DNA of 54,729 nucleotides from a virus (IMGVR_UViG_3300032093_000178:1-54729); one strand, 5' to 3'. Shown: positions 1 to 50,550, counted from the first letter of the stretch. Notes: generated by a model not told the origin, from the letters alone. A program made the numbers and translations.

Positions 1-29
1 TCTTTCGGTGGTTCGGGCCATCTTCCCAT
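1..29 (-). CDS. 5' end of a gene running off the left edge (MGRWPEPPK...)
   Basis: ATG at 29-27 just downstream of a Bacteroidota-type promoter; only 9 codons visible. Confidence 0.4.
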
Positions 30-45
30 AAAAAAACAATTTGTA

Positions 46-77
46 CAAATATACGAAAAAATCCCCAAATTACCAAA
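46..77 (-). promoter_or_regulatory. Bacteroidota primary-sigma-type promoter (-33 TTTG, 20-nt spacer, -7 TATATTTG)
   Basis: Minus strand TTTG-gtaatttggggattttttcg-TATATTTG matches the TTTG-N19-21-TAnnTTTG consensus. Confidence 0.75.
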
Positions 78-94
78 TGTAAATTGAGGATTTT
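56..94 (-). terminator. Possible intrinsic terminator after the tmRNA, overlapping the next promoter
   Basis: Minus strand AAAATCCTCAA...TTGGGGATTTT imperfect stem ending in a T run, just downstream of the tmRNA CCA. Confidence 0.4.
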
Positions 95-101
95 AAAAAA
101 A

Positions 102-488
102 TGGTGGAGATGAGGGGAATCGAACCCCTGTCTTACGAAGTAATCATAATACCAGTATATCACACGTTTAGGATAAAGTTTAATCTTATTCACTTTCCAA
201 AATAATTGGGGCCGTATGGTTAGTACAGCTTTCCACCAACCTATCAGTTTTTAAGAGCCGATAGGTAGAGCTCCTTTTTGTTCACTTCTTTTTTAAACCC
301 CATGAGTGATACGGGAGGTGATTAGGCTGCTACAGCTAAATCAGCACCCATGAATGACATTACATCATCAAAGGTCCAAGTAGATAATTCTACGTCAGTT
401 ATTGTTTTGTACAGATTTAAAGACATCTAGCACTTCTGTCTACGTGTGGTACTACCATTCTCATCGCAATCAAATCCATGGCATCCCC
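102..488 (-). ncRNA. ssrA: tmRNA (387 nt)
   Basis: 5' GGGGATG pairs with 3' CATCTCC-ACCA with the G3.U Ala identity pair; T-arm GGGGTTCGATTCCCC; tag frame 396..322 after ATAACT encodes DVELSTWTFDDVMSFMGADLAVAA*. Confidence 0.95.
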
Positions 489-499
489 ATATAATTATG

Positions 500-531
500 T
501 AAATATACGAATAATAATTTAGATTACCAAA
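500..531 (-). promoter_or_regulatory. Promoter for the tmRNA (TTTG-N20-TATATTTA)
   Basis: Minus strand TTTGGTAAT...TTCGTATATTTA is a near copy of the promoter at 46-77 and lies 11 nt upstream of the tmRNA 5' end. Confidence 0.65.
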
Positions 532-897
532 TTATTTTACTTTTGCGAACTGCAAAAGATTTGGAAGATATAATGAAAGTTTTGGCATGTTTTCCAAAAC
601 TAAAGAAATTGATTTTTTATTAGAATCCATAATGTCTTGAGGAGTTCCTGTAATTCTCCATTTAATAGATTGAACTTTATACAAACCATTTGATTCTATT
701 ACTTCCAAAAAATAACTATTTATTTCATATATAGTAGCATCCGAATCGTTTATTTTTTGTAAAAAAAATCGAGTAATATATCCAACCTCATAATCGTTTT
801 CTTCCGGAGTTGGAACATATGTTTGTATATCCAATTGTGAAATCTCATCGGTGGCCGTTGTTTTGGCTCTTACATATGTAATAATATCTATTGCCAT
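532..897 (-). CDS. Hypothetical protein (121 aa, MAIDIITY...), last gene of the baseplate cluster
   Basis: The ORF track starts at 948, but the ATG at 897 overlaps the upstream stop (TAATG), as at several other junctions here. Confidence 0.7.
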   Translation of the reverse strand: MAIDIITYVRAKTTATDEISQLDIQTYVPTPEENDYEVGYITRFFLQKINDSDATIYEINSYFLEVIESNGLYKVQSIKWRITGTPQDIMDSNKKSISLVLENMPKLSLYLPNLLQFAKVK

Positions 898-3608
898 TAT
901 GTTGATTTTATTTGTTGAAAGTATTGACCAGTAACGGTTGTGTACCAACTATTACCCTCAACGGTTTGTTCCATTTGAGTTATTTGAAAAAATCCAAAAT
1001 CTCTATATTTTTTAGGAATACCAATAATATTAAAAGTATCACCCCTTCTTAAACCACTTTTTCCTAAAATCTTAAATGTATATTTTATTGGAAGTGGATG
1101 TGATGTTTTTTCCGTACCACTATATGATTCAAAAGCGTTATTTTTTAAAACATCAAATAGTTGAGTATCATCACAACAATAAATTTTAAAGTTTTTATTG
1201 AATTCAGTAAATCCTGCGGTTGGTTTCAACGTCATTGGTACAATTATATTTGTATCTGGATTTGGTATAACATCAATTTTATTTAAATTGGTACTTAATG
1301 CAGTTTCCGCTATACTCTTAGCTTCAGCACTAACTTTGGCAAGTTCTTTTTTCAAATCTAATAATTTATCAGCTTCCGATATACCATTATTATATTTGTT
1401 TGATGTAATCGTACCACCCATTCTCGTTTCAGTATAAACAAGATTACCCGTAGCATCTTTATATGTATCGGTTGTATATGTTATTCCAGTACGGGCACCT
1501 CTTGTAGATGTAGTTTTAACTAAACTTGCCAATAATACATCAATTTCAGCTTGCACATCCGCGGGTTTACGCGATGGTGTTGCGGCAGTTTTTTTAGCGG
1601 TGCCGGTTACCGAGGTCTTTCTGTAATCAACCTCATCAAAAAATCTGTCTTTTGATTTACCAAATAGGCCTCCCATATCCAAACCATGTGAATCAGGGTT
1701 ACTTGAATAGTTTTCTCTTTTTAAAACAATTTGATTCGTCATTTCTTGTGGAATATCTATATCCAACGTTGCTTCCAAAAATACGGATTGCTCTCCAGAA
1801 TGAAAAAATTCTTTTACAATTCCTTTTTTATTGTTAAGATATCCTCTCCAGTTTTCATCGACTATTTGTAACTTAACACCATCTTCCATTGGTATTTCAA
1901 TAATTTGTAAATTCCAAAACGAATTTACTGCTGATGACATTTCATTACACAACTCAATTAACACATCTCTCATTGATTTGTTTGATGAGTTTTTTAATGC
2001 GTTTGCAAATACATTAAAATTTATATATAAGTTTTCCAATTTACCATAATACCCTGCTCTTTCATAAAATCCATTATAATATGCTCCAGGAGCTACAGTA
2101 CCTGGTATATCTACATCCTGTACGAAGGATATCAAGCTCGCCACATATTTACCGGTACTTCGATTAAACGCATATCCGTTTATACGATTATCAATAAAGT
2201 TTTTTGTTAAAACATCGTCAATACTTACGGGTGATGGATTACAATAATACTCATAAAAGTTTGGCATTTTTCCGGGTATTATCAATTTATTAGGCTTTGT
2301 AGAAAACATATTTGGAAATGCACCAATAAGCCCATAGTTGTTTACCCTACATGTAACAGATTTAGTTCCCATTTTATACGCCCATAACCCATTGTTTGCA
2401 TTAAGTATATCAAGTGCAACTCCAAAACGTATGTATCTATTTTCAGAAACTAATTTATCTTTTGGAACGGTCAATCCACCAACACTAAATTCTTTTTGTC
2501 CAAACAATTCTTTTATAGAAGTAATAAATGTATCTGCCAATGCATTAGCAACATCTTGTTGAACTTTATAATCAAAATTTAATAAATCAAACCAACCGTA
2601 TTCATCGGTACTATATACCTTTTCAATTATACCTTTAACTTCCGGTGTTTGTCTATTACCCGGTAATTTATTAAACATCCATTTATACCTTCTACCACCC
2701 ATAGTTTTAGCACGACCTGCACCAGTAGCTATCTCATCAATATCGTTTATCGAATACGTTTGTGTAGTAGGTACATTTGTAACCTGTTTAGTACCACTAT
2801 CCAATTCCATAATCGTATGCTGTCCTTGAAGAAATACCGGCAATCCAGGTGCACCTCTTAAATTAATGGTCAAATTAAATATATCATTTTCAGAAGTCAA
2901 AGAACCCCCTACTATAAATCCGTAAAACGCATCATAATCACCGTATGCAGTTATACGTTTGGTTTGTAATAAGGAGTAATCCAGTCCTACATCGGTTGCT
3001 TCAGATATAATTGTTCCAGGAGTAGAAGTATCTATTAATTCTGCGGTAGCTGCATCCGTGTTCCAACCATATTCAACAAATAGAGTATGCCCTGGTTCCA
3101 TCAAATATTCTTGCAACATTTCAGCTTGAGCAAGTGAAAAACATTTAACAGTCAATGTACAATGCCTTGATATTTGGTCTTTTCCTTCTTTTATTTCCAT
3201 AGCAGTTACCAATGGACCTGGTCTTAATACAAGGTCTCCCGTCCATGGTGTTAAGTAAGGATAAACGGCATTACCCATAAAATCCCTACCAAGCATACCA
3301 CTACTATATCTTCCCCCATATAAACTCGGAGTTTGATTTACCGCCGTAATTTGATTATTTGCATCTTTTGTAAATGAAAGATAATCTGAAAACATTGGTA
3401 CATCTGGATTTGAATAAAGTATCAATCCAAAATCGTTTTTATTTTTCGGAGTTCGTAATCTATCCGTTGCAGATATAATACGAACCCATGACACCAATTC
3501 CGATGAAGCCTGTGTTATATCTACAGCTCCGCCACTAGGTGCTTTACCCGATGTTTGTATGTTGTTATAGATACTGGTATCAATACTACCAAATACTGGA
3601 TATGACAT
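897..3608 (-). CDS. Putative baseplate hub protein (gp27/P2 gpD-like), 903 aa
   Basis: C-terminal 'GKSGLRRGDTFNIIGIP...FQITQMEQTVEGNSWYTTVTG' resembles hub-protein C-termini; follows the LysM gene. Confidence 0.55.
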   Translation of the reverse strand: MSYPVFGSIDTSIYNNIQTSGKAPSGGAVDITQASSELVSWVRIISATDRLRTPKNKNDFGLILYSNPDVPMFSDYLSFTKDANNQITAVNQTPSLYGGRYSSGMLGRDFMGNAVYPYLTPWTGDLVLRPGPLVTAMEIKEGKDQISRHCTLTVKCFSLAQAEMLQEYLMEPGHTLFVEYGWNTDAATAELIDTSTPGTIISEATDVGLDYSLLQTKRITAYGDYDAFYGFIVGGSLTSENDIFNLTINLRGAPGLPVFLQGQHTIMELDSGTKQVTNVPTTQTYSINDIDEIATGAGRAKTMGGRRYKWMFNKLPGNRQTPEVKGIIEKVYSTDEYGWFDLLNFDYKVQQDVANALADTFITSIKELFGQKEFSVGGLTVPKDKLVSENRYIRFGVALDILNANNGLWAYKMGTKSVTCRVNNYGLIGAFPNMFSTKPNKLIIPGKMPNFYEYYCNPSPVSIDDVLTKNFIDNRINGYAFNRSTGKYVASLISFVQDVDIPGTVAPGAYYNGFYERAGYYGKLENLYINFNVFANALKNSSNKSMRDVLIELCNEMSSAVNSFWNLQIIEIPMEDGVKLQIVDENWRGYLNNKKGIVKEFFHSGEQSVFLEATLDIDIPQEMTNQIVLKRENYSSNPDSHGLDMGGLFGKSKDRFFDEVDYRKTSVTGTAKKTAATPSRKPADVQAEIDVLLASLVKTTSTRGARTGITYTTDTYKDATGNLVYTETRMGGTITSNKYNNGISEADKLLDLKKELAKVSAEAKSIAETALSTNLNKIDVIPNPDTNIIVPMTLKPTAGFTEFNKNFKIYCCDDTQLFDVLKNNAFESYSGTEKTSHPLPIKYTFKILGKSGLRRGDTFNIIGIPKKYRDFGFFQITQMEQTVEGNSWYTTVTGQYFQQIKST

Positions 3609-3627
3609 ATTTTATATATTTTATTTT

Positions 3628-3912
3628 TTAGTAACCCAATTGAGAAAGTATGGCCTTATACGCTAATGGTATTCGTAATATTGTCCCATCAGGAAACCCA
3701 ATTGGAGCATTATGAATTTTGTTTGCAGCAGCTATAATCCACCATAAGTTTGAATCTTTGTAAAAAGTGTATGCCAATGAATCTAATCTATCACCAGTTT
3801 CCGTAGCAACATATATATCACTCGGTGATTCTGGAATATCTGGTAAGATTCTTGGCAAATAAACTTCTTTCCCGTCTATTGTTTGTTTTATTGAATTAGT
3901 TCTATATCTCAT
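3628..3912 (-). CDS. LysM-like baseplate protein (P2 gpX / T4 gp53-like), 94 aa
   Basis: 'YVATETGDRLDSLAYTFYKDSNLWWIIAAAN...GTILRIP' is a typical LysM/gpX pattern. Confidence 0.8.
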   Translation of the reverse strand: MRYRTNSIKQTIDGKEVYLPRILPDIPESPSDIYVATETGDRLDSLAYTFYKDSNLWWIIAAANKIHNAPIGFPDGTILRIPLAYKAILSQLGY

Positions 3913-3923
3913 ATAATTAATTA

Positions 3924-37052: not shown

Positions 37053-37970
37053 TTATTCATTAGCAGATTCAAGTAGAGATAGGACTACCGATAATTTGGT
37101 TGAGCCCGAAACTATAAAGCCGTAACCTTCTTCTAATACTAATTTACCAGAAACTACCGGTGAAAGAGAATCGGCTACCGGAATTGTTACATTTGTCACC
37201 AACTCAACAGGTGGTTGTTCGGTAAATACTGGATTTTCAATGGTTGCCTTAATAACATCCACTAAACTATTAACCAAATATATAGATGCCGAAATTCCCG
37301 CTACACTTCCGTTTGTAAATCCAGTTAGTACAGATTGAGTAACTACATTTTGAAATAAAAGTGGAGAATCGACTGAACCCGTTGTTGATTCGTTTTTTAT
37401 AATTTGAGTAGACAGTGTTTTTAAATAATCTAATGCAAATATTGATGCGGAATATTCAGTTGTTGCAATTGCAGATACACCATTTTTATCAAAGTAAGCT
37501 TTTGCTGCTTTATTTGTTCTAATAGTTGTATTATTTACAATATCATATTTTATTGCATCCACATCATCTAAAGTATTTTGTTCAAAGTATGATGATATAA
37601 AAGTAAATGGAGTTTCAGATAAACTATTTTGATTATTAGTATATGCTGCTATTTCTTTTCTTAAAAATTGTCTATTTGCATTTAATAATAAAGATGCACT
37701 CGCAAAACTACCACTAAAATCTAATAAAGACACAGAAGAACTAATAAATGAACTACCATTATATATGTCAACAAATTGTGGTACAGGCAATTCTCTATTA
37801 GATGTAACTAATATAGTAACCGGCTGTGTCACTAAACTATTATTTGTAATTTGACAAGATAGTACAATAGATGAAACTCCTAATGGAGTTGCATATATTT
37901 CATCTTGTTCTCCAGTCAATCCTGTTACTACTGACTGGAACCGATTTAAGGGTACAAAAACTTCTGCCAT
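37053..37970 (-). CDS. Virion protein, 305 aa: small beta-sandwich with one inserted helical repeat
   Basis: Termini resemble the 110-aa protein; the middle ('LLLNANRQFLRKEIAAY...VDAIKYDI') resembles the repeat of the 4184-aa protein. Confidence 0.75.
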   Translation of the reverse strand: MAEVFVPLNRFQSVVTGLTGEQDEIYATPLGVSSIVLSCQITNNSLVTQPVTILVTSNRELPVPQFVDIYNGSSFISSSVSLLDFSGSFASASLLLNANRQFLRKEIAAYTNNQNSLSETPFTFISSYFEQNTLDDVDAIKYDIVNNTTIRTNKAAKAYFDKNGVSAIATTEYSASIFALDYLKTLSTQIIKNESTTGSVDSPLLFQNVVTQSVLTGFTNGSVAGISASIYLVNSLVDVIKATIENPVFTEQPPVELVTNVTIPVADSLSPVVSGKLVLEEGYGFIVSGSTKLSVVLSLLESANE

Positions 37971-37995: not shown

Positions 37996-40900
37996 TTATA
38001 TTTGTAGTGCCAATGAGAACGGAGTTACTAATGAGAATAGAGATTTACTAAATGTTCTACCCACAAGAGTACCAGTTGCCTGATTAATACTCAATCCCGT
38101 ACCAATTCTAAAGTCACCATCTTGGTTTCCAGAGGTAAAGAATATTCTACCACCACCCAATTCGGTAATTTCAAACGCCGGATTAGCTACACCACTACCA
38201 CCTTGATTTGGTGGAAGTGCTTTAAATGTCACACCACTACCATTATAAGAGTAGTCAATACCAGTTGCCACAATTAAAGAACCAAATGCTTCCAATGGAG
38301 CTCCCGCTGCTATAAACTCTGCTCTAGTTCTTAGATAACGATTTGTTTCCAATGTTTCTAATAATTGGTCTCTAGTCACAGCGATTGCACTTCCATACTG
38401 ACCATCGTAGTATGAAGATGCTGCTCTAATTCCTCTTTCATTTCCACCATATAATAAGTCTGTCACACACGCATCTACAATAAATCCAGTATCACGTGAA
38501 CAACTCGCCTCATTATATACTAAATATGGGAAAGCTCCATTTGTATATCCAATTGCTCTTTGTTTTAATTCTTCTTTACCAAGTTTTAATCTTTCAGCCG
38601 CTTGTCTTCTTTTAGTTGATGGAGCTAAATAATTTAATAGAGTATTTGCAACTATCTTTTCAGAAAGTCCTCTTGCGAAGTTAATACCATCTACGGTTTG
38701 TTTTTTCTGTCCATTATTATCACCATAACTCTCCACAATCGCTACCGATGGGAATTTATAGTAGTATGAACCCGCTTCAATACTTCTTTCGTTACCACCA
38801 TAAACTAAGTCAGTTCTGATTGCATCTATGATAAATCCTAAGTCACGCGAACAACTTACTTCATTGTACTTTAATCCACTCCAAGATGAAGATAAGAATG
38901 TTATAGTTTCTTTTTGTATCAATTCTTTATTATCTGTCAACAATTTTGCAGTTGTTAATAACGATGCAGATGGTACTAAATAGGTTGGATTAGTTATTAC
39001 CTTTTTAGATAATTTTCCAGCGTATCTGATACCAGTAAGTGTTGGGTCTAATTGGTTTTGAGTTGATGGAACACCCGAATTAATTGCGTTAGAAGGATAT
39101 AAATAATAATACTGTCCTGCTATTACACTTCTTTCTTGTCCACCATATAATACATCAGTTGCTGCTGCATCTATTAAGTATCCAACATCTCTCTTACACG
39201 TTGCCTCATTATAATATACACCACTCCAAGATGAAGATACATATTTAATTGTTTCTTCTGCTACGAATGTTTTATTTTTTCTTAACAGGTCAAATGATGC
39301 AGATGCCTCTAATGATGCGGTTACAAATACTATGTTTTTTACAACTTTTTGTGCCAATCTACTTGCGTAGTTTATACCATCAATTGTTTGTCCTAATTGA
39401 CCAAGTCCATCACCATCTCCTTCAACAATTGCCAAAGATGGATATTTGTAATAGAACTCGCCATTTAATACACTTCTCTCATTACCACCATATAATAAAT
39501 CGGTAGTAACACCATCTAATATATAACCAACATCTCTCTTACACTTATCTTTATCATACTCAAATGTACTCCAGCTAGCAGTTAAGTAAGCTAAAGTTTC
39601 ATTTTGTATAAACTCTCTATTCTTTCTCAACAAATTAACCGATGCTGATACTATTTGTGATGCAGTTACATAAGTTAATGATGCTGCAACATTCTTAGAA
39701 GTTTGTCCTGCGTAATTAACACCCGTTAATGTTGGTTGTAATTGTGAGCCTTGCGCTTGAGATGGATATAAGTAATAGAATACCCCAGCGTTTGTACTTC
39801 TTTCATTACCACCATATAATAAATCGGTAGAAACTGCATCTATGATATGACCAACATCTCTCTTACAAGTTACCTCATCATACGATGCCGTGCTCCAAGA
39901 AGAAGATATGTACGCGATAGTTTCATTTTGAATAAACTCTCTATTGTTTCGTATCAATTCGTATGATGCCGATACATTTGCTGATGCGGTTACATAAGTT
40001 ACATTTTGTACTATATTTTGTGCCAAACGGCTTGCATAGTTAATACCATCCAATGTTTGATTTAGTTGTGCACCTTGTGCTTGAGATGGATATAAGTAAT
40101 AGAACACACCATTGAATATTGATGCGGAATTTGCATTAAATAATAAGTCTTCGGCAGAACCACTTAATATAAACCCTAAATCACGTCTACACTTACTTTC
40201 ATCGTAAGATGCAGTTGACCAAGATGAACTCAAATATGCAATACTTTCCGATACTATGAATCCAATATTTGCTTTTAATAAATTATATGCGTATATTACA
40301 TTAGTATCAACGGATGCAGTTGTATATGGAATTAAAGTTGGTAATGAACCAGTACCATTTCTTACTATATCTGTTACAATAGAAATAGATGCGGATATTG
40401 TGTTAGCTTCGGTAATAGTTCCAAATAACGATGATGTTATAAATTGTTGAGCGTTAGTTACTTTAATATTTGCTAACGTATTAGGTATAACAGAAGGTGT
40501 CCCTATCAATATACTACTAATAGATGCCGTTGTTATTCTAGCTGCGTACTTAATTGCTTCCACTGTCTCCACAACTTGCGAACCAGACCCATTAGCTTGA
40601 GATGGGAACTGATAATAGTAATCCGCATTCTTTCTACTTCTTTCGTTACCACCATAAAGTAAATCAGTTGCTACACCATCGATGATATATCCTAAATCTC
40701 TATAACATTTACTTTCACTATAATCTAAATTAGGGTATTTAACATTTACAAATGCGATACTTTCACTTTGTATGAATCGTTTGTTAGCCTTTATTAAATC
40801 ATAGGTATATTGAACTTCTAATGATGATGTAAATATCTCTTTATTAACAACTACATTCATAGCTGTTCCTTTTGCGTATCTTACACCAGTTAATGTTGGT

Positions 40901-43900
40901 TCTAATTGTGAATCGGTAGCTTGTGATGGGAAATCATAATAGTATCTTCCAGCCACAACACTTCTTTCGTTTCCGCCATATAAAAGGTCAGTTGCTACAG
41001 CATCTATAATATATCCGATATCTCTTTTACAAGTTATTTCATTATAATCAAAATCACTCCAAGAAGAAGATAGATACGCAATTGATTCACTTTGTATAAA
41101 TTCTTTATTAGCTCTTAATGAATTCCAAGATGCCGATGTTTGTTGATTAATCGATGCTGATATATGTGTAAACGGAATGTTCAACACCACCTTCTCTGCC
41201 AATCCACTTGCGTATTTAATTGCAGTGATTGTTTGGTCTAATTGTGAACCAGTAGCTTGTGATGGGAAATCAAAATAGAACTTACCATTAAACAAAGATG
41301 CTGAGTTACCACCGTATAAAAGGTCAAATGCAGAACCACTAAGGATTCCAGTCAAATCTCTTTCACATTTACTTTGTGTATATTCAAATCCACTCCAAGA
41401 TGAACTCATATATGCAATAGTTTCATCAACTATAAATTTAGAGTTACTTACTAATAAGTTATATGCCGAATTTATCTTTGTATTTGTATTTGCTATTGGA
41501 TATGTTGATGGTCTATATGCGATTGAACTTGTACCATTATTTAATAACACATCAATTACCAACGATAATGATGCTGATATTAATTTGCCTTGCAATCTTC
41601 CTGCTGCACTTCCACTTATTAATTGTGGAGTATCAGTTACTTTAATACTTGCAGATGTATTTGATACGATTGTTGGTAGAACCGATGTTCCATTTTCAAT
41701 TACATTTAGTATCAAATCAAATCCACTTGCAATCTTATTAGTATCAAATGATGATGCCGATATTACTTGTCTTATAGGATTTGCATTTGTTACTTTTAAT
41801 GATGAAGATGTACTAGCTACTAATGTAGGTAATACACTTAATCCATTTTTAAGAACGTTTACAACAGTACCATAAGAAGAACTTATATTTGTAATTTGAG
41901 TTGATAAGTTATATGAACCAGTTCCAATTACTTGTTCTTGTGAACTTATATGTAATAAAGTTGGTGTAGATAATTCAAACCCATAATTATAGTTTCTTGC
42001 CAATGAATCCGGTACAAATGCAACACCATTTTCAATAATATCAGCCACATGCTTAAATGATGATGTGATAATATCTAATTCAACTCCACTTGCTGATATT
42101 GATGATGTGTATTGAATGGTATTACTTACTTTAATTAAACCATTTCCATTTTCAATAATAGTTGGTATTGTAGATAATCCATTTTCAATAATATTAGTAA
42201 CTAACGCAAATGATGAACTAATTTGATTTACTTCGTTTATACTTGCACTCAACGATGTTGTATATTGTGTTGTATCGGTTACTTTAATATTTCCATCGGT
42301 ATTTGTTGTTAATGCCGGTGAATTTAATTTAATGTTTTGAGCAATTGCTTTAGAAAGTGCTTTTGCGTATTCAACACCCTCTACAGTTTCTCTAACTTGC
42401 GTACTCTTTGTTGCTAATGATGGATATAAGTAATAATACTGTCCTGCTATAACACTTCTTTGATTTCCACCATAGAAAGTATCAGTTATAACCGCATCTA
42501 AAATATAGCCAACATCACGTCTACATTTTTCTCTTAAATAAACTAAATTAGGGAAGAATGCATCTATATATTGTACCGTTTCGTTTTGTATAAATCGTTT
42601 ATTCTGTCTCAACAAATTAACCGATGATGTTACAAATCCAGTTGGTGCTATCAGTTCTTTATTTGATATCACATTTTGAGCAGTACCAGCTACATATTGT
42701 ATTCCATCAAGAGTAGGTCCTTTTTGAGTTGCTGTAGTTGGTGAAATAGAACCGGTTAGAATTGCCGCTGATGGATATAAATAATAATACTCTCCAGCTT
42801 TAGAACTTCTTTCGTTTCCACCATATAAAAGGTCAGTTCTTACCGCATCTATAATATAGCCAATATCTCTCTTACAAGTTGTTTCATTATAACTAAATCC
42901 ATCATCACCACTCCAAGAAGAAGATAGATAAGCAATTGATTCGCTTTGTATAAACTTCTTATTATCCGTTAATAAATTAAATCCAGTTAATTCAGATGTT
43001 GTTGGTGATTGTAATAATATGTTTGCTACAATTTTTTCAGTAATTCCTTTAGCGTATTTTATACCATCTAAAGTTTGATTTAATTGTCCACCAGTATCAC
43101 CGTCATTACCTATGATTGCTAATGAAGGATATAAGTAATAATACTCACCAGCTTCAGCTACTCTTTCATTACCACCATAAAGAATATCAGTTGCTACTGC
43201 ATCTAAAATATATCCAACATCTCTCTTACAAGTTGTTTCATTATAAGGGAATGAACTCCAAGAAGAAGATATATATGCAATAGTTTCATTTTGTATAAAT
43301 GCCTTATTATTGAATATTAATTCGTATGCTAAAATGCTAGAATTTGATGCCGATACAAATGTTGAATTCTTTAATACTTTATCAGTTAAATCTTTTGCAT
43401 ATTTGATTCCACTTAATGTTGCTCCTAATTGAGATGTTGTAGCTTGTGATGGATATTCATAATAGAATACTCCAGCATTAATACTTCTTTCATTACCACC
43501 ATAAACTATATCAGTTGTTACCGCATCTAAAATATGTCCTACATCTCTCTTACAAGTTGTTTCATTATAAGATGTTGTACTCCAACTTGCCGATACATAA
43601 CTTATAACTTCGTTTTGTATAAATTCTCTATTGTTATAAATTAATTCTTTTGCTTGTAATTTATTTTGTGATACTTTAATAAATGTATTTCCTTTAAGAA
43701 TTTTGAATGCGATATCTCTAGCATATTGGATACCGGTAACAGTCTCCTGTATTTGTGAACCCGTTGCTTCTGATGGATATAAGTAATAGAATACCCCAGC
43801 ATTTATTGTTCTTTCGTTTCCACCATATAATAAATCCGTAGAAACTGCATCTATAATATGTACTATATCTCTTTTACACGTTGATTCAACGTACTGATGC

Positions 43901-46900
43901 GTGCTCCAAGATGAACTTATATAAGGTATTACTTCATTTTTAATAAAATCTTTGTTATTAACTAAAAGGGCATATGCATCTTTAACTTGTGCCGATTGAG
44001 TTACAAATGTAGTATTTAATACTATTTTTTGTGCCAAACGTGATGCGTAATTAATACCATCTAAAGTTTGATTTAATTGTGCTCCTTGTGCTTGTGATGG
44101 GAACTGATAGTAATATGCCCCATTAAATACGGATGCAGAATTTGCATTCCATAACAAATCTTCTGCTGAACCGCTCAATATAAATCTTAAATCACGTCTA
44201 CACTTACTTTCATCGTAAGATGCAGTTGACCAAGAAGAACTTAGGTATGCAATTGATTCAGAGACTATAAAATCTAAGTTATTTTTTAAGATAGTATAAG
44301 CTGCTATTACATTTGAAGATGATATTGATGATGTATATAAAGTCACAGTTGGCAAAGAACCCGTACCATTTGCTATTATATTTGTTACAATAGAAATAGA
44401 TGCAGATATTGCATTAGCTTGTGTTTGTGTTGCTGGCGTTCCTCCAAAATATTGAGTAGCATTAGTTACTTTAATATTATTTACATTTGAAATAATAGTA
44501 GGTAATGAACCAGTACCATTTTCTAATATGTTTATAATTTTATCAAAACTTCCAGATATATTTCTTGCCAATGAAGATGATATAATTACAGAAGATGTAT
44601 ATTGATTTGTATTTGTTATTTTTACTAACCCATCAACATTTTTAATTGATACAGGCAATGAACCAGTACCATTTTCAACAATATCTAAAACAATATCAAA
44701 ATTATTATTTGAAGATGTAAGATATGTAGATGATATTGATGCGGTTGTTATATATCTATTTGTAGGAGTTCTTCTAATTAAAGAATTTACATTTGTTACA
44801 ATAGTTGGAATTGAACCTGTGCCATTTTCTACAATATCAAGTACGATATCAAATCCGGTAGTTACTTTTACGTTTTCAGTATTAGATGGAGTTATTGATG
44901 ATGTTATTTGTGCACCACCCAAAACATTTACCCCTTTATTTGTATTTTTAACAATAGTTGTTGGTATTGAACCAGTTCCGTTTGATAGGATATTAAGTAT
45001 GTTACCAAAAGAAGATGATACAATAGATTTATCATTTGTACCTACTGATATAGATGATGTAATTTGTTGAGCGGTAGTTGCTTTAATTCCAGCTGAAGTA
45101 TTTAATACCACATTAGGTGCTGAATTACTTCCGCTTTCAATTACGTTTGCTACAATATCAAAACCATCTTCTATTGATTTTCCACCAATTGCTACTAACT
45201 TTGCTAAACCTTTTGTAAAGTTTAATGAATCAATTGTTTCTTCAGATTGAACTCCGGTAGCTTGAGATGGATATAGGTAATAGAATCTTCCAGCAGTTAT
45301 ACTTCTTTCATTACCACCATAAACTAAGTCAGTAATTACAGCATCTACAATAAATCCAGTATCTCTATAACACTTACTTTGGATATAATCTAAATTAGGA
45401 TATGTTTCATTTGCATAATCAACGGTATTTTGTTGTAAAAATGCTCTATTAGTTTTTAATAAACTTGCTGCGTTTAATACTGATGTAGATGGTGCTGATA
45501 ATACAACATTAGTAATTATATTTTGTACTAATTGATTTGCATAATTTACACCAGTTATAGTTGGGTCTAATTGTTGTGTTGCCGAAGGTACTCCACCTAC
45601 AATTGCCGCCGATGGATATCTATAATAGTATTCTCCTGCAAATCTAGTTCTTTCGTTACCGCCATATACCAAGTCAGTTCTTACTGCATCTAAAATATAT
45701 TTTGTATCTCTTAAACACTTAGCCTGATTGTATTCTGCTGTACTCCAAGATGAAGATACATATGCAACTACTTCATTTGCAATTAAGTTTTTATTTCTTG
45801 ATATTAAATTACTTGCATTTAATTTGTTTTCATCAGCCGAAAGGAATACCGAACCAGTAACAATCTTTTGTATCATTCTACCTGCATAGTTGATACCATC
45901 TAAAGTTGGAAGTAATTGTGAACCAGTTGCTTGAGATGGATATAAGTAATAGAATATACCAGCATTTCTACTTCTTTCGTTACCACCATAAACTAAGTCA
46001 GTTCTGATTGCATCTATTATATGTCCTACATCTCTCTTACAAGTTAATTCAATATATGGATGCTCACCCCAAGAAGAACTCAAATAAGCGATTGTTTCAT
46101 CTTGTATGAATACTTTGTTGTTTACTAATAAGGATGCCGCATTTAGGATATTAGCCGATGCTGTTATGAATTCTACATTTTGAATTACTTTTTGTGCCAA
46201 ACGCGATGCGTAGTTAATACCATCTAATGTTTGTTGAAGCTGAGCACCTTGCGCTTGTGATGGGAATTCCCAATAGAACAATCCGTTAAATACAGATGCA
46301 GAATTTGCGTTCCATATTAAATCTTCAGCTGAACCACTCAATATAAATCCTAAATCACGTCTACACTTACTTTCATCATATTCAAATCCAGCCCAAGAAG
46401 AACTTAGATATGCAATTGATTCAGATACTATAAATGGAATATTGTTTTTAAGAATTTCATAAGCCGCTACTGAATTAGATGATGTTATTCTATTTGTATA
46501 TGTTTGGAAAGCCGGTGCTGAAAACTCACCACCTTCAATTATCTTTGTTACAATTGATATTGATGACGATATAAAGTTTACATCACTTGCACTTGCCGAA
46601 TAAGATGCCGAAATATATTGTGATGCGTTTGTTACTTTAATACTTGCACTTACATTTGATGTAAGAGTAGGTACAACAGATAATCCACCTTCTAATATAT
46701 CGGTGATTATTTTTATTGAAGAACTTAATTGTGTACTTTCAGTATTTGTTCCATAGTAACTAGAACCAGTTATGTATTGTGGTGTTTGAGTTACCTTTAC
46801 ATTTGAATTTAAGTTTGAAACTAATGTACCCAATGAACCAGTACCATTTGTTATTATAGTTGCTACATACGCAATTGATGCTGATATATCATTTCCAACC

Positions 46901-49900
46901 GAACCACTAACTACAAGTGAAGCTGTTATTTGTGGTGTTCCAGTTACAGCAATTGCTGCTGCTTGAGATGCGGTGAATAAAGGTTCTGCTATTAACCCAC
47001 CACCAATAATAGTATTTACAATATCAAAATTTCTAGCAATTGTATTTACTTCATTTGGCGTTGTAAAAGATGATGTTATTTGAGAACCAGTAGTTACATT
47101 TATTGGATTATATTTGTTCCAATTTAGTCCAGTATTTTGTGCCAACAAAGATTTAATTGAACCTAACCCCCTTTCCACAATTCCTTCTATAATTGAAAAC
47201 GAATTACCAACCGAAGTTTGTTCGTTAGTACCACCACCAAAAGATGATGTTATATTTGTTACACCAGATAATCTAAAGTTTTTCTCATCATTATAAACAA
47301 TACGAGGTGTATCTAATATTTGATTTTGAACAATCGTGTCTCCAATAATTTTTGCATAACGAATACCGGCAATAGTTGATGATTTTTGTGTTCTTGTAGC
47401 CTGTGATGGGAAATCATAATAATATCTACCCGCAATCACACCTCTTTCAAGACCACCATAAAGTAAATCAGTTGCTACATTATCAACGATATAACCAACA
47501 TCTCTCCTACAAGTTGCTTGATTATATTTTAAGTTTGGAAATGCAACGTTAATAAATTGAATTGTTTCGTTTTGAATTAATTCCTTATTATTTATTAAAT
47601 TATTATACGCAGATAAAGTTGATGCATCAGGTGATGTAAATGTTTTTCCTTTTAATAGATTATCAACTAACCCACTAGCATATCTTATGCCATCTACTGT
47701 TTGTCCTAATTGCCCAACACCGTCACCATCTCCTTGTACAATTGCTAATGATGGATATAAATAATAATATTCACCAGCAGTTATACTTCTTTCATTTCCA
47801 CCATATTTTATATCAGTTGCTACCGCATCTAAAATATACCCAGTATCACGTCTACACTTTACTTCATTGTAATAAAAATTAGACCAAGATGATGATAGAT
47901 AGGTTATAACTTCATTTTGTATAAATGTTTTATTATCTCTAATCGTATCCCAAACATCAACCACCTCATTCGTTGGTTCTACATATATCTTACCTCTAAT
48001 TAAATTCAATGCAACACCGGCCGCATGTTTAACTGCCGTTAGTGTTGGTCCTAATTGAGTAGTAGTTGCCTCCGATGGATACTGATAATAAAACAAACCA
48101 TTTCTAATACTTTCTTCGTTTCCACCAAATAAAAGGTCTTTTGCTACACCATCTATGATATACCCAACATCTCTCTTACAAGTTTCTTCTGGATATGAAA
48201 AATCACTCCAAGACGATGAAACAAATTGAATAACCTCATCTTTAATAAATTCTTTGTTGTTTATTAATATTTCGTATGCAGTTATAATATCAATACCCGT
48301 TTTAGCTACCGAACCACTTTGTATTGTAGCAGGATATGTTAATGTATTTTTAATTAAATCAAATGGAGTTGTAGATGAATTTACTATATTAATTTCACCA
48401 CCCATAGAACTCCTATTCTGAGATACATAATATAATTTATTTGGTGCATTGTATGGTACCGTAAAGGTTATTGTGCCTCTACTATCACCATTATTAACCA
48501 TGCCAATATTATAATCAAATCTTTCTCCAATACCTTCTATTTGCTGTGTTCTAATCCAAAACGGATATTCAAGTCCACCAAATGTTTCTATCGCATCTAC
48601 ATTAAATTTGTAAGTTTCTCCTCTAAATAAAGTTAATGTAGGATTACTACCAATTCCTTCGAAATCAAATGAAGAACTATTTGTGTTTGTTATTACAAAT
48701 GATTTTTGATGATTTCCAGGTATTGGTAAAATATTACTACCAGTACCATTTGCTAAAATATTATAAACAATACTAAAACTTGCACTTACTGAATTTATTG
48801 TTGCTAAAGATGATGTTACACCAAGCATTATTTGTTCAGTATTTCCCGCTTTAATACTACCACTTGTATTTGCTACATATGTTGGTTTAACAGAAAGTCC
48901 TGATTTAATAATATTAATTATATTATTAAAAGATGAACTTACTGATGATGTATAGTTTGTTGCTACACTACCTATTGGTTGAATTATATCGTTACCTATT
49001 TGTTTACTAGCACTGGTATTTGGTCTAAAATTAAATGAACCTGTACCATTTGCTAATATACTCAAAATAGCCGCATAAGATGCACTTATTTGAGTTAAAT
49101 CTGCATTTGTTGCAGATATAGATGATGTTATTTGCTCTGCTCCTAAAATATTGTAAGGAGAATCAAACCCATATCCTTTTATAGAACTTTTTGCTAATAA
49201 CGTTGGGAAGTTTGATGCACCACTATCAACGATAGCACTAATCAATTTATAATCGGCTGATATTTCTTCGGCTGCTGCGGTTGATAATGCAGTTCCAGCA
49301 GATACTCTACTTTGTGTATATAAAGCCGGTGATGTTAAACGAATACCTTCATCAGTATTTAATTTTGTTATTGTAGGTAATCCGTTTTCTAAACCTTTAT
49401 TTAATACATCAACAACACAACTCCAAGTTCCTCTAACAGAATCTCTAGCTGCTATATTACCACCACTACCAGATATAAAACGAGAACCAGATGCATACAT
49501 ACCATATAAACCAAACGAAATGTTTGAGTTGTTTAGGGTAGCATGTCCACCATTGTTTACTCTAATAGAATAGTATGAGAAGTTATTAAAGAAAGATACC
49601 AACTGAATGAAACCTCTACCGTTTACCAAACAACCTACGCCATTTGGAGAAATTTGAGTGTACGCATCCAATACCATTGAAGCCAACGGAGAATCTGGAT
49701 CTATCACATCACCATTTACATAAAGACCTCCGCCGCCTGGTGGAATATCTTCGTAGAGTTCGGTGAATGAATTTTCTTGATTAGAAATCTGCGAACAGTT
49801 CTGAACGTATGGGGAAGTTGTAATAAATGCACCCGGTTGGAAAGCAACCGCAAATCCCTTTTCAGGATTTATTTGGTCTGGAAATAATCTCAAACCACCC

Positions 49901-50550
49901 ATCGTAACTTCCGCAATATAACATCCAGAGTTTACATAGAAAAGGTCTTCTGTAGGGTTTTTAGCGTTAATCTTGGTGATACGCAATCCCGCACCCCAAA
50001 TGGTTGTGTTTTTAGGAAGAATCACAGGATTATCCTCTAAATACGTTCCAGCCTGTACCTTAATTACATATCCGTTGAATATTGAACCAGTATCAAACCC
50101 ATATCTACCATCGTATCCTGGAGATGCCAATGAAGCTGCTCTTTTAATTGTACGAAGTGGGTATTGAATACTTCTACCATCGTTATTATCATCACCATCA
50201 GTTGAAGATACATAAAGTGTAGGAACGTTAGCACCAAAATCTTTTGCAAGAATTCCTGCGTATCGTTGAGTGTTTAATGATTCAGATGAAAATGATGCCG
50301 TAAATGAAAGAATTGTATCCGGAGCACTTACTCTTAAATCTCCATCAATTGTTAATGAGCCGGTTAAAAAAACCGAACCAGTTATTTCACTTTTATCATT
50401 TTCATTGTTGCCTAAAAAGAAACTTTTAGATACGAATAATGAGCCAGATATAATAGCGTCATTACCAACATTAACATCTTGTCTAATGTTGAGTGAACTA
50501 CTTATATCCTGTTGTTCTTCAATTTGTTTACGTGGTATCAGTCTTGCCAT
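37996..50550 (-). CDS. Giant virion protein, 4184 aa: beta-helix-like N-terminal domain, degenerate cupredoxin insert, 22 CxRD helical repeats and 22 single-helix repeats
   Basis: 'LYVSSTDGDDNNDG...RTIKRA...VQAGTYLE' beta-helix start; repeat 'NKxFIQxExIAYxSSSW...CKRDVGYIxDAVxTDLLYGGNERS'. Confidence 0.85.
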   Translation of the reverse strand: MARLIPRKQIEEQQDISSSLNIRQDVNVGNDAIISGSLFVSKSFFLGNNENDKSEITGSVFLTGSLTIDGDLRVSAPDTILSFTASFSSESLNTQRYAGILAKDFGANVPTLYVSSTDGDDNNDGRSIQYPLRTIKRAASLASPGYDGRYGFDTGSIFNGYVIKVQAGTYLEDNPVILPKNTTIWGAGLRITKINAKNPTEDLFYVNSGCYIAEVTMGGLRLFPDQINPEKGFAVAFQPGAFITTSPYVQNCSQISNQENSFTELYEDIPPGGGGLYVNGDVIDPDSPLASMVLDAYTQISPNGVGCLVNGRGFIQLVSFFNNFSYYSIRVNNGGHATLNNSNISFGLYGMYASGSRFISGSGGNIAARDSVRGTWSCVVDVLNKGLENGLPTITKLNTDEGIRLTSPALYTQSRVSAGTALSTAAAEEISADYKLISAIVDSGASNFPTLLAKSSIKGYGFDSPYNILGAEQITSSISATNADLTQISASYAAILSILANGTGSFNFRPNTSASKQIGNDIIQPIGSVATNYTSSVSSSFNNIINIIKSGLSVKPTYVANTSGSIKAGNTEQIMLGVTSSLATINSVSASFSIVYNILANGTGSNILPIPGNHQKSFVITNTNSSSFDFEGIGSNPTLTLFRGETYKFNVDAIETFGGLEYPFWIRTQQIEGIGERFDYNIGMVNNGDSRGTITFTVPYNAPNKLYYVSQNRSSMGGEINIVNSSTTPFDLIKNTLTYPATIQSGSVAKTGIDIITAYEILINNKEFIKDEVIQFVSSSWSDFSYPEETCKRDVGYIIDGVAKDLLFGGNEESIRNGLFYYQYPSEATTTQLGPTLTAVKHAAGVALNLIRGKIYVEPTNEVVDVWDTIRDNKTFIQNEVITYLSSSWSNFYYNEVKCRRDTGYILDAVATDIKYGGNERSITAGEYYYLYPSLAIVQGDGDGVGQLGQTVDGIRYASGLVDNLLKGKTFTSPDASTLSAYNNLINNKELIQNETIQFINVAFPNLKYNQATCRRDVGYIVDNVATDLLYGGLERGVIAGRYYYDFPSQATRTQKSSTIAGIRYAKIIGDTIVQNQILDTPRIVYNDEKNFRLSGVTNITSSFGGGTNEQTSVGNSFSIIEGIVERGLGSIKSLLAQNTGLNWNKYNPINVTTGSQITSSFTTPNEVNTIARNFDIVNTIIGGGLIAEPLFTASQAAAIAVTGTPQITASLVVSGSVGNDISASIAYVATIITNGTGSLGTLVSNLNSNVKVTQTPQYITGSSYYGTNTESTQLSSSIKIITDILEGGLSVVPTLTSNVSASIKVTNASQYISASYSASASDVNFISSSISIVTKIIEGGEFSAPAFQTYTNRITSSNSVAAYEILKNNIPFIVSESIAYLSSSWAGFEYDESKCRRDLGFILSGSAEDLIWNANSASVFNGLFYWEFPSQAQGAQLQQTLDGINYASRLAQKVIQNVEFITASANILNAASLLVNNKVFIQDETIAYLSSSWGEHPYIELTCKRDVGHIIDAIRTDLVYGGNERSRNAGIFYYLYPSQATGSQLLPTLDGINYAGRMIQKIVTGSVFLSADENKLNASNLISRNKNLIANEVVAYVSSSWSTAEYNQAKCLRDTKYILDAVRTDLVYGGNERTRFAGEYYYRYPSAAIVGGVPSATQQLDPTITGVNYANQLVQNIITNVVLSAPSTSVLNAASLLKTNRAFLQQNTVDYANETYPNLDYIQSKCYRDTGFIVDAVITDLVYGGNERSITAGRFYYLYPSQATGVQSEETIDSLNFTKGLAKLVAIGGKSIEDGFDIVANVIESGSNSAPNVVLNTSAGIKATTAQQITSSISVGTNDKSIVSSSFGNILNILSNGTGSIPTTIVKNTNKGVNVLGGAQITSSITPSNTENVKVTTGFDIVLDIVENGTGSIPTIVTNVNSLIRRTPTNRYITTASISSTYLTSSNNNFDIVLDIVENGTGSLPVSIKNVDGLVKITNTNQYTSSVIISSSLARNISGSFDKIINILENGTGSLPTIISNVNNIKVTNATQYFGGTPATQTQANAISASISIVTNIIANGTGSLPTVTLYTSSISSSNVIAAYTILKNNLDFIVSESIAYLSSSWSTASYDESKCRRDLRFILSGSAEDLLWNANSASVFNGAYYYQFPSQAQGAQLNQTLDGINYASRLAQKIVLNTTFVTQSAQVKDAYALLVNNKDFIKNEVIPYISSSWSTHQYVESTCKRDIVHIIDAVSTDLLYGGNERTINAGVFYYLYPSEATGSQIQETVTGIQYARDIAFKILKGNTFIKVSQNKLQAKELIYNNREFIQNEVISYVSASWSTTSYNETTCKRDVGHILDAVTTDIVYGGNERSINAGVFYYEYPSQATTSQLGATLSGIKYAKDLTDKVLKNSTFVSASNSSILAYELIFNNKAFIQNETIAYISSSWSSFPYNETTCKRDVGYILDAVATDILYGGNERVAEAGEYYYLYPSLAIIGNDGDTGGQLNQTLDGIKYAKGITEKIVANILLQSPTTSELTGFNLLTDNKKFIQSESIAYLSSSWSGDDGFSYNETTCKRDIGYIIDAVRTDLLYGGNERSSKAGEYYYLYPSAAILTGSISPTTATQKGPTLDGIQYVAGTAQNVISNKELIAPTGFVTSSVNLLRQNKRFIQNETVQYIDAFFPNLVYLREKCRRDVGYILDAVITDTFYGGNQRSVIAGQYYYLYPSLATKSTQVRETVEGVEYAKALSKAIAQNIKLNSPALTTNTDGNIKVTDTTQYTTSLSASINEVNQISSSFALVTNIIENGLSTIPTIIENGNGLIKVSNTIQYTSSISASGVELDIITSSFKHVADIIENGVAFVPDSLARNYNYGFELSTPTLLHISSQEQVIGTGSYNLSTQITNISSSYGTVVNVLKNGLSVLPTLVASTSSSLKVTNANPIRQVISASSFDTNKIASGFDLILNVIENGTSVLPTIVSNTSASIKVTDTPQLISGSAAGRLQGKLISASLSLVIDVLLNNGTSSIAYRPSTYPIANTNTKINSAYNLLVSNSKFIVDETIAYMSSSWSGFEYTQSKCERDLTGILSGSAFDLLYGGNSASLFNGKFYFDFPSQATGSQLDQTITAIKYASGLAEKVVLNIPFTHISASINQQTSASWNSLRANKEFIQSESIAYLSSSWSDFDYNEITCKRDIGYIIDAVATDLLYGGNERSVVAGRYYYDFPSQATDSQLEPTLTGVRYAKGTAMNVVVNKEIFTSSLEVQYTYDLIKANKRFIQSESIAFVNVKYPNLDYSESKCYRDLGYIIDGVATDLLYGGNERSRKNADYYYQFPSQANGSGSQVVETVEAIKYAARITTASISSILIGTPSVIPNTLANIKVTNAQQFITSSLFGTITEANTISASISIVTDIVRNGTGSLPTLIPYTTASVDTNVIYAYNLLKANIGFIVSESIAYLSSSWSTASYDESKCRRDLGFILSGSAEDLLFNANSASIFNGVFYYLYPSQAQGAQLNQTLDGINYASRLAQNIVQNVTYVTASANVSASYELIRNNREFIQNETIAYISSSWSTASYDEVTCKRDVGHIIDAVSTDLLYGGNERSTNAGVFYYLYPSQAQGSQLQPTLTGVNYAGQTSKNVAASLTYVTASQIVSASVNLLRKNREFIQNETLAYLTASWSTFEYDKDKCKRDVGYILDGVTTDLLYGGNERSVLNGEFYYKYPSLAIVEGDGDGLGQLGQTIDGINYASRLAQKVVKNIVFVTASLEASASFDLLRKNKTFVAEETIKYVSSSWSGVYYNEATCKRDVGYLIDAAATDVLYGGQERSVIAGQYYYLYPSNAINSGVPSTQNQLDPTLTGIRYAGKLSKKVITNPTYLVPSASLLTTAKLLTDNKELIQKETITFLSSSWSGLKYNEVSCSRDLGFIIDAIRTDLVYGGNERSIEAGSYYYKFPSVAIVESYGDNNGQKKQTVDGINFARGLSEKIVANTLLNYLAPSTKRRQAAERLKLGKEELKQRAIGYTNGAFPYLVYNEASCSRDTGFIVDACVTDLLYGGNERGIRAASSYYDGQYGSAIAVTRDQLLETLETNRYLRTRAEFIAAGAPLEAFGSLIVATGIDYSYNGSGVTFKALPPNQGGSGVANPAFEITELGGGRIFFTSGNQDGDFRIGTGLSINQATGTLVGRTFSKSLFSLVTPFSLALQI

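Follow-up and report, generated by a model that had tools for sequence, protein, structure and literature searches.

A giant phage tail-region protein that probably folds as a single-chain, bracket-nested tree of split globin-type domains

The arms of SMC and Rad50 are fold-back rods in which the chain runs out and back and the N- and C-terminal parts meet, and in talin (R7-R8) one bundle is inserted into another and forms a side branch. ApcE, the very large cellular linker between phycobilisome core and membrane, carries one phycobiliprotein-like bilin-binding domain together with linker repeats, and organises separate phycobiliprotein discs. We know of no protein described as a tree of split domains matched like brackets, and a literature search found no description of a bracket-nested split-domain protein. 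Here we analyse a 4184-amino acid (aa) protein encoded by a single open reading frame (ORF) of IMGVR_UViG_3300032093_000178, a viral contig of 54,729 nucleotides (54.7 kb, completeness rating 24%) that is referred to in its entirety as the window. We consider it probable that this giant fibre or structural protein is a single-chain nested tree of split globin-type domains, in which each core (C) is finished by a distant, shorter unit (H). Such a protein would differ from SMC/Rad50 and talin, which are coiled coils or hold a single insertion, by its globin-like rungs completed in trans, its five nested levels and its conserved count rule; ApcE is likewise a very large scaffold protein holding a phycobiliprotein-like domain, but it is cellular, has a single such domain and is not nested.

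The proposed domain may resemble the phycobiliproteins and the bilin biosynthesis-associated globins (BBAGs) in its predicted globin-type helical fold, it has a C-x-R-D motif at the place equivalent to Cys84, and bilin-synthesis genes occur in related phage genomes, but here a phage structural protein would house 22 domains per chain, and every one of them would consist of a core and an H unit lying far from it. CXRD is described as the covalent bilin site of phycobiliproteins and of the lyase-independent BBAG-1 and BBAG-3 (PMC10151467). The fold matches of the window protein in BFVD are giant proteins of T4-like cyanophages (PHROG 4527, 5342 and 701; S-PM2 p091; S-WAM2 gp167), which share with it the CXRD core and a place among giant virion-module genes; S-PM2 p091 additionally lies just upstream of the gp13 region, as does the giant gene here. 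Unlike the window protein, these cyanophage proteins hold only a few cores, each adjoined by an H-like helix (as judged by eye), and neither S-PM2 p091 nor S-WAM2 gp167 has an H unit that our H models recognise; compared with them, only in the family of the window protein do H units and cores form runs of their own that are nested in balance.

The C.RD pattern occurs exactly 22 times in the protein, in runs of 3, 4, 6, 3 and 6 with a within-run spacing of 108–118 aa, and its cysteine, arginine and aspartate are invariant in 22/22 cores. H units also number 22, in runs of 5, 5, 6, 5 and 1, giving the overall order H5-C3-H5-C4-H6-C6-H5-C3-H1-C6. This is the order put forward in the original prediction, made from the DNA sequence by a model, and both pattern and profile counts bear it out provided that two degenerate H units are included. 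With H read as an opening and C as a closing bracket, the depth runs 5,2,7,3,9,3,8,5,6,0 and never falls below zero, again as had been claimed, and the core variants described at that time recur as stated: [FY]P[NY]LxY replaces SSSW in the final core of 5/5 runs and an ILSGSA variant marks the opening core of runs 2–5 (4/4). The description of H as a lone helix had to be given up, however, since the H repeat is a strand-plus-helix unit of about 51 aa (spacing 49–61) in which a short strand motif resembling IKVTNAxQY precedes a helix of about 20 residues (ISxSFxIVxxIIxNGTGSLPT). The first degenerate unit (aa 372–395) reaches 13.3 bits when the model is rebuilt on homologous sequences and escapes an iterated helix-only model, which finds 21/22 units; the second (aa 1793–1815) consists of the helix only and scores 10.1 bits. 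The repeats are old at the DNA level, Tandem Repeats Finder returning a single array of 324 bp with 2 copies at 75% identity.

Units were then counted in homologues with profile models built from the window protein's own units, using the best 120 of 686 homologues (2666–5154 aa; 121 proteins counted). H units were taken as the union of a 51-aa model and a helix-only model, because the helix-only model undercounts (equality in just 2/109 proteins); the 51-aa model drifted in length upon iteration. Both termini are present in 109 of the 121 proteins, which represent 23 architectures with 17–28 units of each kind, and H equals C in 100 of these 109, the remaining nine having one H unit fewer than cores. 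Equality of the counts in homologues of other lengths, which the original prediction had proposed as a check, is found in most of the full-length proteins counted and exceeds chance. In the five of the nine unequal proteins that were examined by eye, a degenerate helix is present at the orthologous spot. At thresholds between 0 and 8 bits, 96–105 of the 109 are equal, with H exceeding C in at most three; even at 0 bits, where 103/109 are equal and three have one surplus H, the count levels off at the core number. None of the balanced homologues falls below depth zero, and the two counts correlate over architectures with r = 0.993. In truncated proteins the counts depart from equality as would be expected, H units being lacking in 10 of the 11 that are N-truncated, whereas the single C-truncated protein has 23 H units and 20 cores. 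In a 108-row tree built from the terminal domains the core number changes at least 43 times and the H number 46 times, while the difference between them changes just six times, these being figures from a rough FastTree reconstruction of short domains rather than exact event counts. Complete relatives outside the set are also balanced, with H counts in these divergent proteins made partly by eye: a protein of 1092 aa is H4-C4 (the fourth H by eye), one of 2234 aa is H5-C3-H6-C8, or 11/11 (4 of the 11 H by eye), and one of 2112 aa is 11/11 (some H units by eye). For two complete relatives of about 3067 aa, 15 H units were predicted from their 15 cores before counting, and H5-C3-H5-C4-H5-C8 (15/15) was found.

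The manner in which units are gained and lost follows the same rule. Within modules the difference between H and C is kept, as in the series H1-C6, H2-C7 and H3-C8, in H6-C4, H7-C5 and H4-C2, and in H5-C4, H7-C6 and H8-C7; in the transition from H1-C6 via H2-C7 to H3-C8 the new H units stand right before the last H and the new cores right after the first core. One homologue carries an entire H4-C4 hairpin inserted within an H run, another is without just H5.1 and C5.1, and the 15/15 relatives lack the complete H6-C6 module. Inserts of at least 80 aa number 98 at H-to-C tips and 37 at H-H joints, with none at 2088 C-C joints and none at 475 C-to-H joints, which suggests that the core runs are unbroken spines and that all else hangs from the H strand. 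The equal counts, their conservation and this insertion and deletion anatomy are direct observations on the family. They bear on the alternative that H runs and core runs are independently folding rods, as beads on a string, whose equal numbers are a by-product of repeat duplication. Tandem duplication across an H-to-C joint can indeed add H units and cores together (H6-C6 to H6-C4-H4-C6), but it gives equality only by luck, and series such as H1-C6/H2-C7/H3-C8 or H6-C6/H7-C7/H5-C5 require separate H and core events; the H–C difference is constant over the 23 architectures. Independent beads also sit poorly with the modelling described below, in which chains of about 1000 residues reach predicted template modelling scores (pTM) of 0.71–0.75, unlike loose beads, and a co-fold of the two ends scores 0.80 against 0.00 for controls; we regard this explanation as barely credible.

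In the architecture we propose, the building block would be a globin-fold domain of the phycobiliprotein or bilin-binding-globin type, split into a core of about 105 aa with the invariant C-x-R-D helix and a separate H unit of about 51 aa that would add a helix and a short bridging strand. H units would come first and cores later, paired one-to-one in reverse order such that the last H joins the first core. With such pairing the chain would follow the H units outwards and return by way of the cores, forming two-stranded rods, and, the pairing being nested, the protein would be a tree. Its trunk would be the six-core last run and its base the joined N- and C-terminal domains, with four side hairpins (3, 4, 6 and 3 rungs) leaving the trunk at joints between H units, and extra domains at the tips and at H-H joints. 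Selection would hold the brackets balanced, rungs, whole hairpins and extra domains being gained or lost only where H = C is preserved.

Structure predictions were made with AlphaFold2 (AF2). A model of aa 1786–2750 (H6-C6, model 1; 46-row alignment) has a predicted local distance difference test score (pLDDT) of 85.3, with H units at about 90, a pTM of 0.71, and five isolated bridge strands in the H linkers and five in the core linkers. The fragment aa 2740–3752 (model 2) constitutes a harder test, since for its brackets to balance the first two H units have to reach over a complete hairpin and pair with cores 5.3 and 5.2, and it reached a pLDDT of 87.0 and a pTM of 0.75, again with 5 and 5 bridge strands. 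In wide-ranging VIA fold searches, matches to model 1 comprise about 105 aligned residues that span approximately 29..955 (14/50 rows), and those to model 2 span 60..1000, 61..885, 171..612 and 194..499; such matches link an early H-unit region to a core 400–940 residues later. For model 1 they join the first H unit with the last core of the H6-C6 module, and in model 2 core 5.3 is joined to the H4.1 region and core 5.2 to the H4.2 region. In the models, an early H-unit region and a core much further along the chain thus together make up a single globin-sized domain, the order being nested or at most one unit away from nested, and, with five bridge strands on each side and matches that reach from an H unit to a distant core, they do not depict the H repeats as bundling with each other, an outcome the original prediction had named as speaking against it. 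Sequence searches of the PDB with aa 1780–2740, aa 1–462 and aa 3862–4184 gave nothing significant, Foldseek of model 1 against the PDB gave no match at E ≤ 0.001, the fold link having come from the VIA wide search alone, and ESM Atlas returned no usable match for three cores.

The two ends of the protein (aa 1–462 and aa 3862–4184) were co-folded as separate chains, scoring 0.80, 0.81 and 0.77 against 0.00 for the best of three controls; the mark applied to such scores is attained by 58/80 solved complexes and 2/110 mismatched pairs, a calibration that is only rough, own alignments having been used here. The runs have at least 76% of contacts in common, with a partner pLDDT of at least 65. 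The pairs of least error place aa 372–380 with aa 4024–4032 and 4070–4081 of the last core, and aa 434 with aa 3960 of the second-last core; furthermore, aa 4081–4100 rest on the N-terminal domain and aa 331–369 touch the C-terminal piece. These contacts are exactly those which the bracket reading predicts (H 1 on the last core, H 2 on the second-last), and the model supports binding without showing it. The out-and-back pairing of distant helices with cores that had been proposed from the sequence is thus supported, as a prediction, by the two AF2 models and by this nested co-fold. A one-to-one pairing in some other long-range order, with the left-over H units of runs 1, 2 and 4 reordered or shifted by one on the last core run, appears very unlikely in view of these contacts, of the model 2 matches for H4.1 and H4.2, and of chain geometry, which forbids parallel pairing within a hairpin. 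It draws some support from the facts that counts alone cannot set the order, that fold-match ranges begin just after, and not at, the predicted partner helix, and that the mirror test is ambiguous for some insertions and deletions.

Another possibility is that the one-to-one pairing occurs between chains, surplus H units completing the surplus cores of a neighbouring subunit by domain swapping in an oligomeric fibre. Equal counts fit this equally well, most phage fibres are oligomers, and the use of two separate chains makes in-chain and between-chain pairing indistinguishable in the co-fold. Against this, the link between the last H and the first core is a mere 15 residues or so, which means that local hairpins must be in-chain, AF2 of a single chain that includes a predicted junction gives a pTM of 0.75, and whole balanced hairpins are gained and lost as units. 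We therefore judge between-chain pairing unlikely, and continue with the single-chain nested tree as the preferred reading.

A number of points nevertheless weigh against that tree. The equality 22 = 22 in the window protein holds only if both degenerate H units are counted, the H model was derived from the window protein and thresholds were set after a first look at the counts, and the nine of 109 homologues that count one H too few were appraised in five cases by eye alone. Many of the changes reconstructed on the terminal-domain tree may be inflated by recombination. In variants H7-C7, H5-C5 and H4-C3, unit-level alignment puts the changed H and C at non-mirror positions, a placement that is not firm as the H units are too alike to be aligned with certainty. 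Regarding the structural support, contacts, branching and fold are all predictions: both AF2 fragments are bracket-balanced, their pairings were deduced from pTM, from the numbers of strands and from the residues at which fold matches start and end, which allows a register error of one unit, and the alignments used contain close relatives only (49–97% identity).

In the models, the fold of the domain comes nearest to that of phycobilisome proteins. Among the best VIA rows for both models, 8 of the top 10 are such proteins (allophycocyanin, phycoerythrin and ApcE, the latter as chains 4xxi_A, 7eyd_19, 9wg7_N2 and 7sc7_BD), followed by globin sensors. The phycobilisome rows have Z scores of 8.3–10.8, a root mean square deviation (rmsd) of 2.1–3.8 Å, about 100–113 aligned residues and 12–18% identity, and the best row, 8imk_G, has Z 10.8 and rmsd 2.6 Å over 106 residues; the query is a predicted model, and Z values under about 13 are common for helical proteins and can reflect a generic helical arrangement. 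A profile of the 22 cores searched against 177,635 PDB sequences placed phycocyanin alpha first, at a non-significant E of 0.51, and aligned the core cysteine with Cys84 and C-x-R-D with K-C84-A-R-D (Cys84-Arg86-Asp87); this equates the 'CxRD' of the original prediction with the CXRD motif of bilin attachment. With hhalign against 25 CpcA sequences the probability was 78.6% (E 1.7e-5) over 25 columns (CpcA 80–104), a likeness that is local only. PF00502 scored 19.5 bits against the whole protein, under its cut-off of 22.2, and 13.3 bits in another search, and matched 2/22 single cores (best E 0.036). Taken as modelled, a core plus its H unit looks like a phycobiliprotein-type globin.

Several side observations concern relatives of the giant protein. 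In S-PM2 p091 (L002 6922-16938), aa 1100–1400 contain repeats with a length of about 122 aa, the CXRD helix of which comes immediately after an H-like helix (…IV..I.NG..SLP), and this repeat may be the unsplit form of the H-plus-core domain. Short relatives have an H-like helix next to each core (by eye). Complete relatives of 640–770 aa (P0178, P0180, P0194-P0203) share the N- and C-terminal domains, between which lie only one or two divergent cores that have T-K-R-D or are devoid of cysteine, with an H-like helix after each; seen against these sequences, the giant tree resembles an expansion placed within a small domain of two parts. The S-WAM2 homologue (L003 2935-13275; 3446 aa, two detectable cores) is encoded between the gp6 and gp8 baseplate wedge genes, in the place of T4's gp7, and some members of the wider family may consequently be baseplate proteins and not fibres. 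Judged by position, with no sequence test against gp7, the window gene does not fit a T4 gp7-type baseplate wedge initiator, as it does not lie between gp6 and gp8 homologues.

We hypothesise that the cores bind bilin. A fuller version, in which the 22 cores would be working, self-attaching bilin-binding globins and the fibre a pigmented virion appendage with as many as 22 bilins, supplied by a haem oxygenase and a PcyA/PcyX-like reductase that the phage lineage itself encodes, is offered tentatively and is in our opinion rather doubtful. It was approached through four larger related records in which the giant protein is 79–95% identical over the N-terminal 462 aa. In three of the four, including both (2/2) of those rated 100% complete, a haem oxygenase gene lies beside one for a ferredoxin-dependent bilin reductase, both above Pfam cut-offs; the reductase is nearest to PcyA, yet far under the equivalog cut-off (97 versus 206 bits). 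The pair lies about 115 kb from the giant gene, at which distance the absence of the reductase from 14 smaller related fragments (0/14) is uninformative, and the window itself, a 24%-complete fragment, yielded neither gene. The four records contain no psbA, CpeT or CpeS (0/4 each), and the absence of CpeT and CpeS implies that bilin attachment, if any, would be autocatalytic or performed by host lyases. Relatives of the reductase occur in 27 of 50,697 cultured phage records, and none was shared between the matches listed for the core (40 of 66) and for the reductase (15 of 27). In a 274-kb related genome (L165, G001:C1:93000-99500) the haem oxygenase–reductase pair (L165:3373-3936 and L165:2811-3440, respectively) stands beside matches to S-adenosylmethionine decarboxylase, an S-AdoMet lyase family protein and an NAD-dependent sugar epimerase/dehydratase. 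In PMC11480375, the joint presence of hemO and pcyX-like genes in phages is termed 'still enigmatic' and its authors 'can only speculate'; PMC6628666, with reference to Jia et al. 2010, names receptors and/or tail fibres that are sensitive to light as the cause of light-dependent cyanophage adsorption. The literature search for CXRD, phage and bilin in combination turned up only the BBAG paper cited above.

The features of the giant protein and its neighbours are listed in Table 1. Every large gene of the window is on the minus strand and together they form a myovirus tail and neck module, which by PHROGs includes an Ad2 adaptor, sheath, tube and baseplate hub; a candidate gp15-like sheath stabiliser scored 23.3 bits, under the 25-bit cut-off, and the sheath is nearest to that of Microcystis phage Mel-JY01 (47% identity). 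The giant gene sits between neck genes on one side and collagen-like fibre genes on the other, and its product matches PHROG 4527 'short tail fiber' (E 2.1e-185, 19 stretches) and PHROG 5342 'tail fiber' (E 7.7e-177, 21 stretches), and the protein is presumably part of the virion, with a putative role as an adhesion or sensing fibre. Its core region matched 66 of the 50,697 cultured phage records, all at less than 60% identity (65 named Synechococcus phages, cyanophages or Prochlorococcus phages and one uncultured marine virus), and a megablast search of cultured phages with a 3-kb piece of the gene gave no match.

Table 1. Coordinates of the giant gene, its predicted parts and adjacent genes in the window.
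Feature	Residues (aa)	Coordinates	Strand	Remarks
Giant gene	4184 in total	37996..50550	(-)	Single ORF; tail-region fibre or structural protein by PHROGs
N-terminal domain	1-370	49441..50550	(-)	Beta-rich; kept in all full-length homologues; predicted to form base with C-terminal domain (co-fold: 331-369 on C-terminal piece)
H run 1, 5 H units	341-610	48721..49530	(-)	First degenerate (helix aa 372-395)
Inserted domain, ~130 aa	615-745	48316..48708	(-)	Between last H of run 1 and first core; predicted tip of hairpin 1
C run 1, 3 CXRD cores	756-1082	47305..48285	(-)	
H run 2, 5 H units	1086-1349	46504..47295	(-)	
C run 2, 4 cores	1361-1792	45175..46470	(-)	
H run 3, 6 H units	1793-2070	44341..45174	(-)	First is helix only; pLDDT ~90 in AF2 model 1
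C run 3, 6 cores	2082-2745	42316..44307	(-)	With H run 3, a self-contained balanced hairpin
H run 4, 5 H units	2749-3010	41521..42306	(-)	
C run 4, 3 cores	3027-3351	40498..41472	(-)	
H run 5, 1 H unit	3357-3407	40330..40482	(-)	2 or 3 units in homologues, together with following cores
C run 5, 6 cores	3419-4086	38293..40296	(-)	Predicted trunk, taking all left-over H units
C-terminal domain	4087-4184	37999..38292	(-)	PHROG 3442 C-terminal match; common to short relatives of 550-1100 aa
ORF directly downstream of giant gene	305 in total	37053-37970	(-)	One degenerate core-like domain, aa 92-196 (23 bits, E 1.4e-8)
Giant collagen gene 1	3609 in total	26155-36984	(-)	Long collagen triple-helix repeats
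Giant collagen gene 2	3068 in total	14903-24109	(-)	Collagen repeats; terminal Peptidase_S74 intramolecular chaperone domain

The N-terminal domain gave no match in a Pfam scan and is putatively a beta-helix, two distant relatives carrying PF07602. The domain inserted in hairpin 1 likewise has no Pfam match, and 95 homologues carry an insert of 90–150 aa at this H-to-C joint. Extra domains of about 160, 318 or 415 aa occur at H-H joints of other homologues (P0015, P0017, P0021, P0029, P0053, P0084, P0114-P0117, P0121 and others) and may be binding modules displayed on the scaffold; some homologues have precomputed matches to PF00754 (F5/8 type C) and PF22633. Two Pfam hits in the window protein were set aside as artefacts of the repeat motif: Wza_C (29 bits against a cut-off of 25.8; aa 1544–1563, 45862-45921 (-)), which covers 20 residues of one core and is taken as a false positive of a very short model, and DUF3850. 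The Wza_C match is also precomputed in many homologues. An attempt to pair H subtypes (Q-I versus Q-Y strand) with core subtypes (long-loop, end-type) was suggestive and was dropped, being confounded by within-run position. The core-like domain of the downstream ORF lacks the CXRD cysteine and is followed in cis by an H-like helix (about aa 225–248, by eye), and an ORF of about 300 aa adjoining the giant gene in two related genomes has the same weak core-like match. The Gly-X-Y repeats of the two collagen genes bring about a GC content of 0.44–0.49 and long spurious antisense ORFs, for example 27366-29138 (+).

The arrangement described here would represent a new way to build a large protein, in which the two kinds of piece that make up a repeat domain stand in separate runs and are matched like brackets. 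A single chain would in this way give a branched scaffold, and selection would preserve its grammar while units are gained and lost dozens of times. Nested domains of this kind will be broken in databases such as BFVD, where giant proteins are divided into segments of about 1100 aa. Should the cores indeed bind bilin, the nested tree would be a scaffold that holds chromophores, and it would supply a phage-encoded acceptor for the 'enigmatic' bilin genes of marine phages without photosynthesis genes, touching on the open question of hemO and pcyX-like genes in phages of non-cyanobacterial hosts. Additionally, by way of the CXRD cores that S-PM2 p091 and other fibre proteins of cyanophages contain, a candidate light sensor would be at hand for the light dependence of cyanophage adsorption, which is unexplained and occurs without host photosynthesis.

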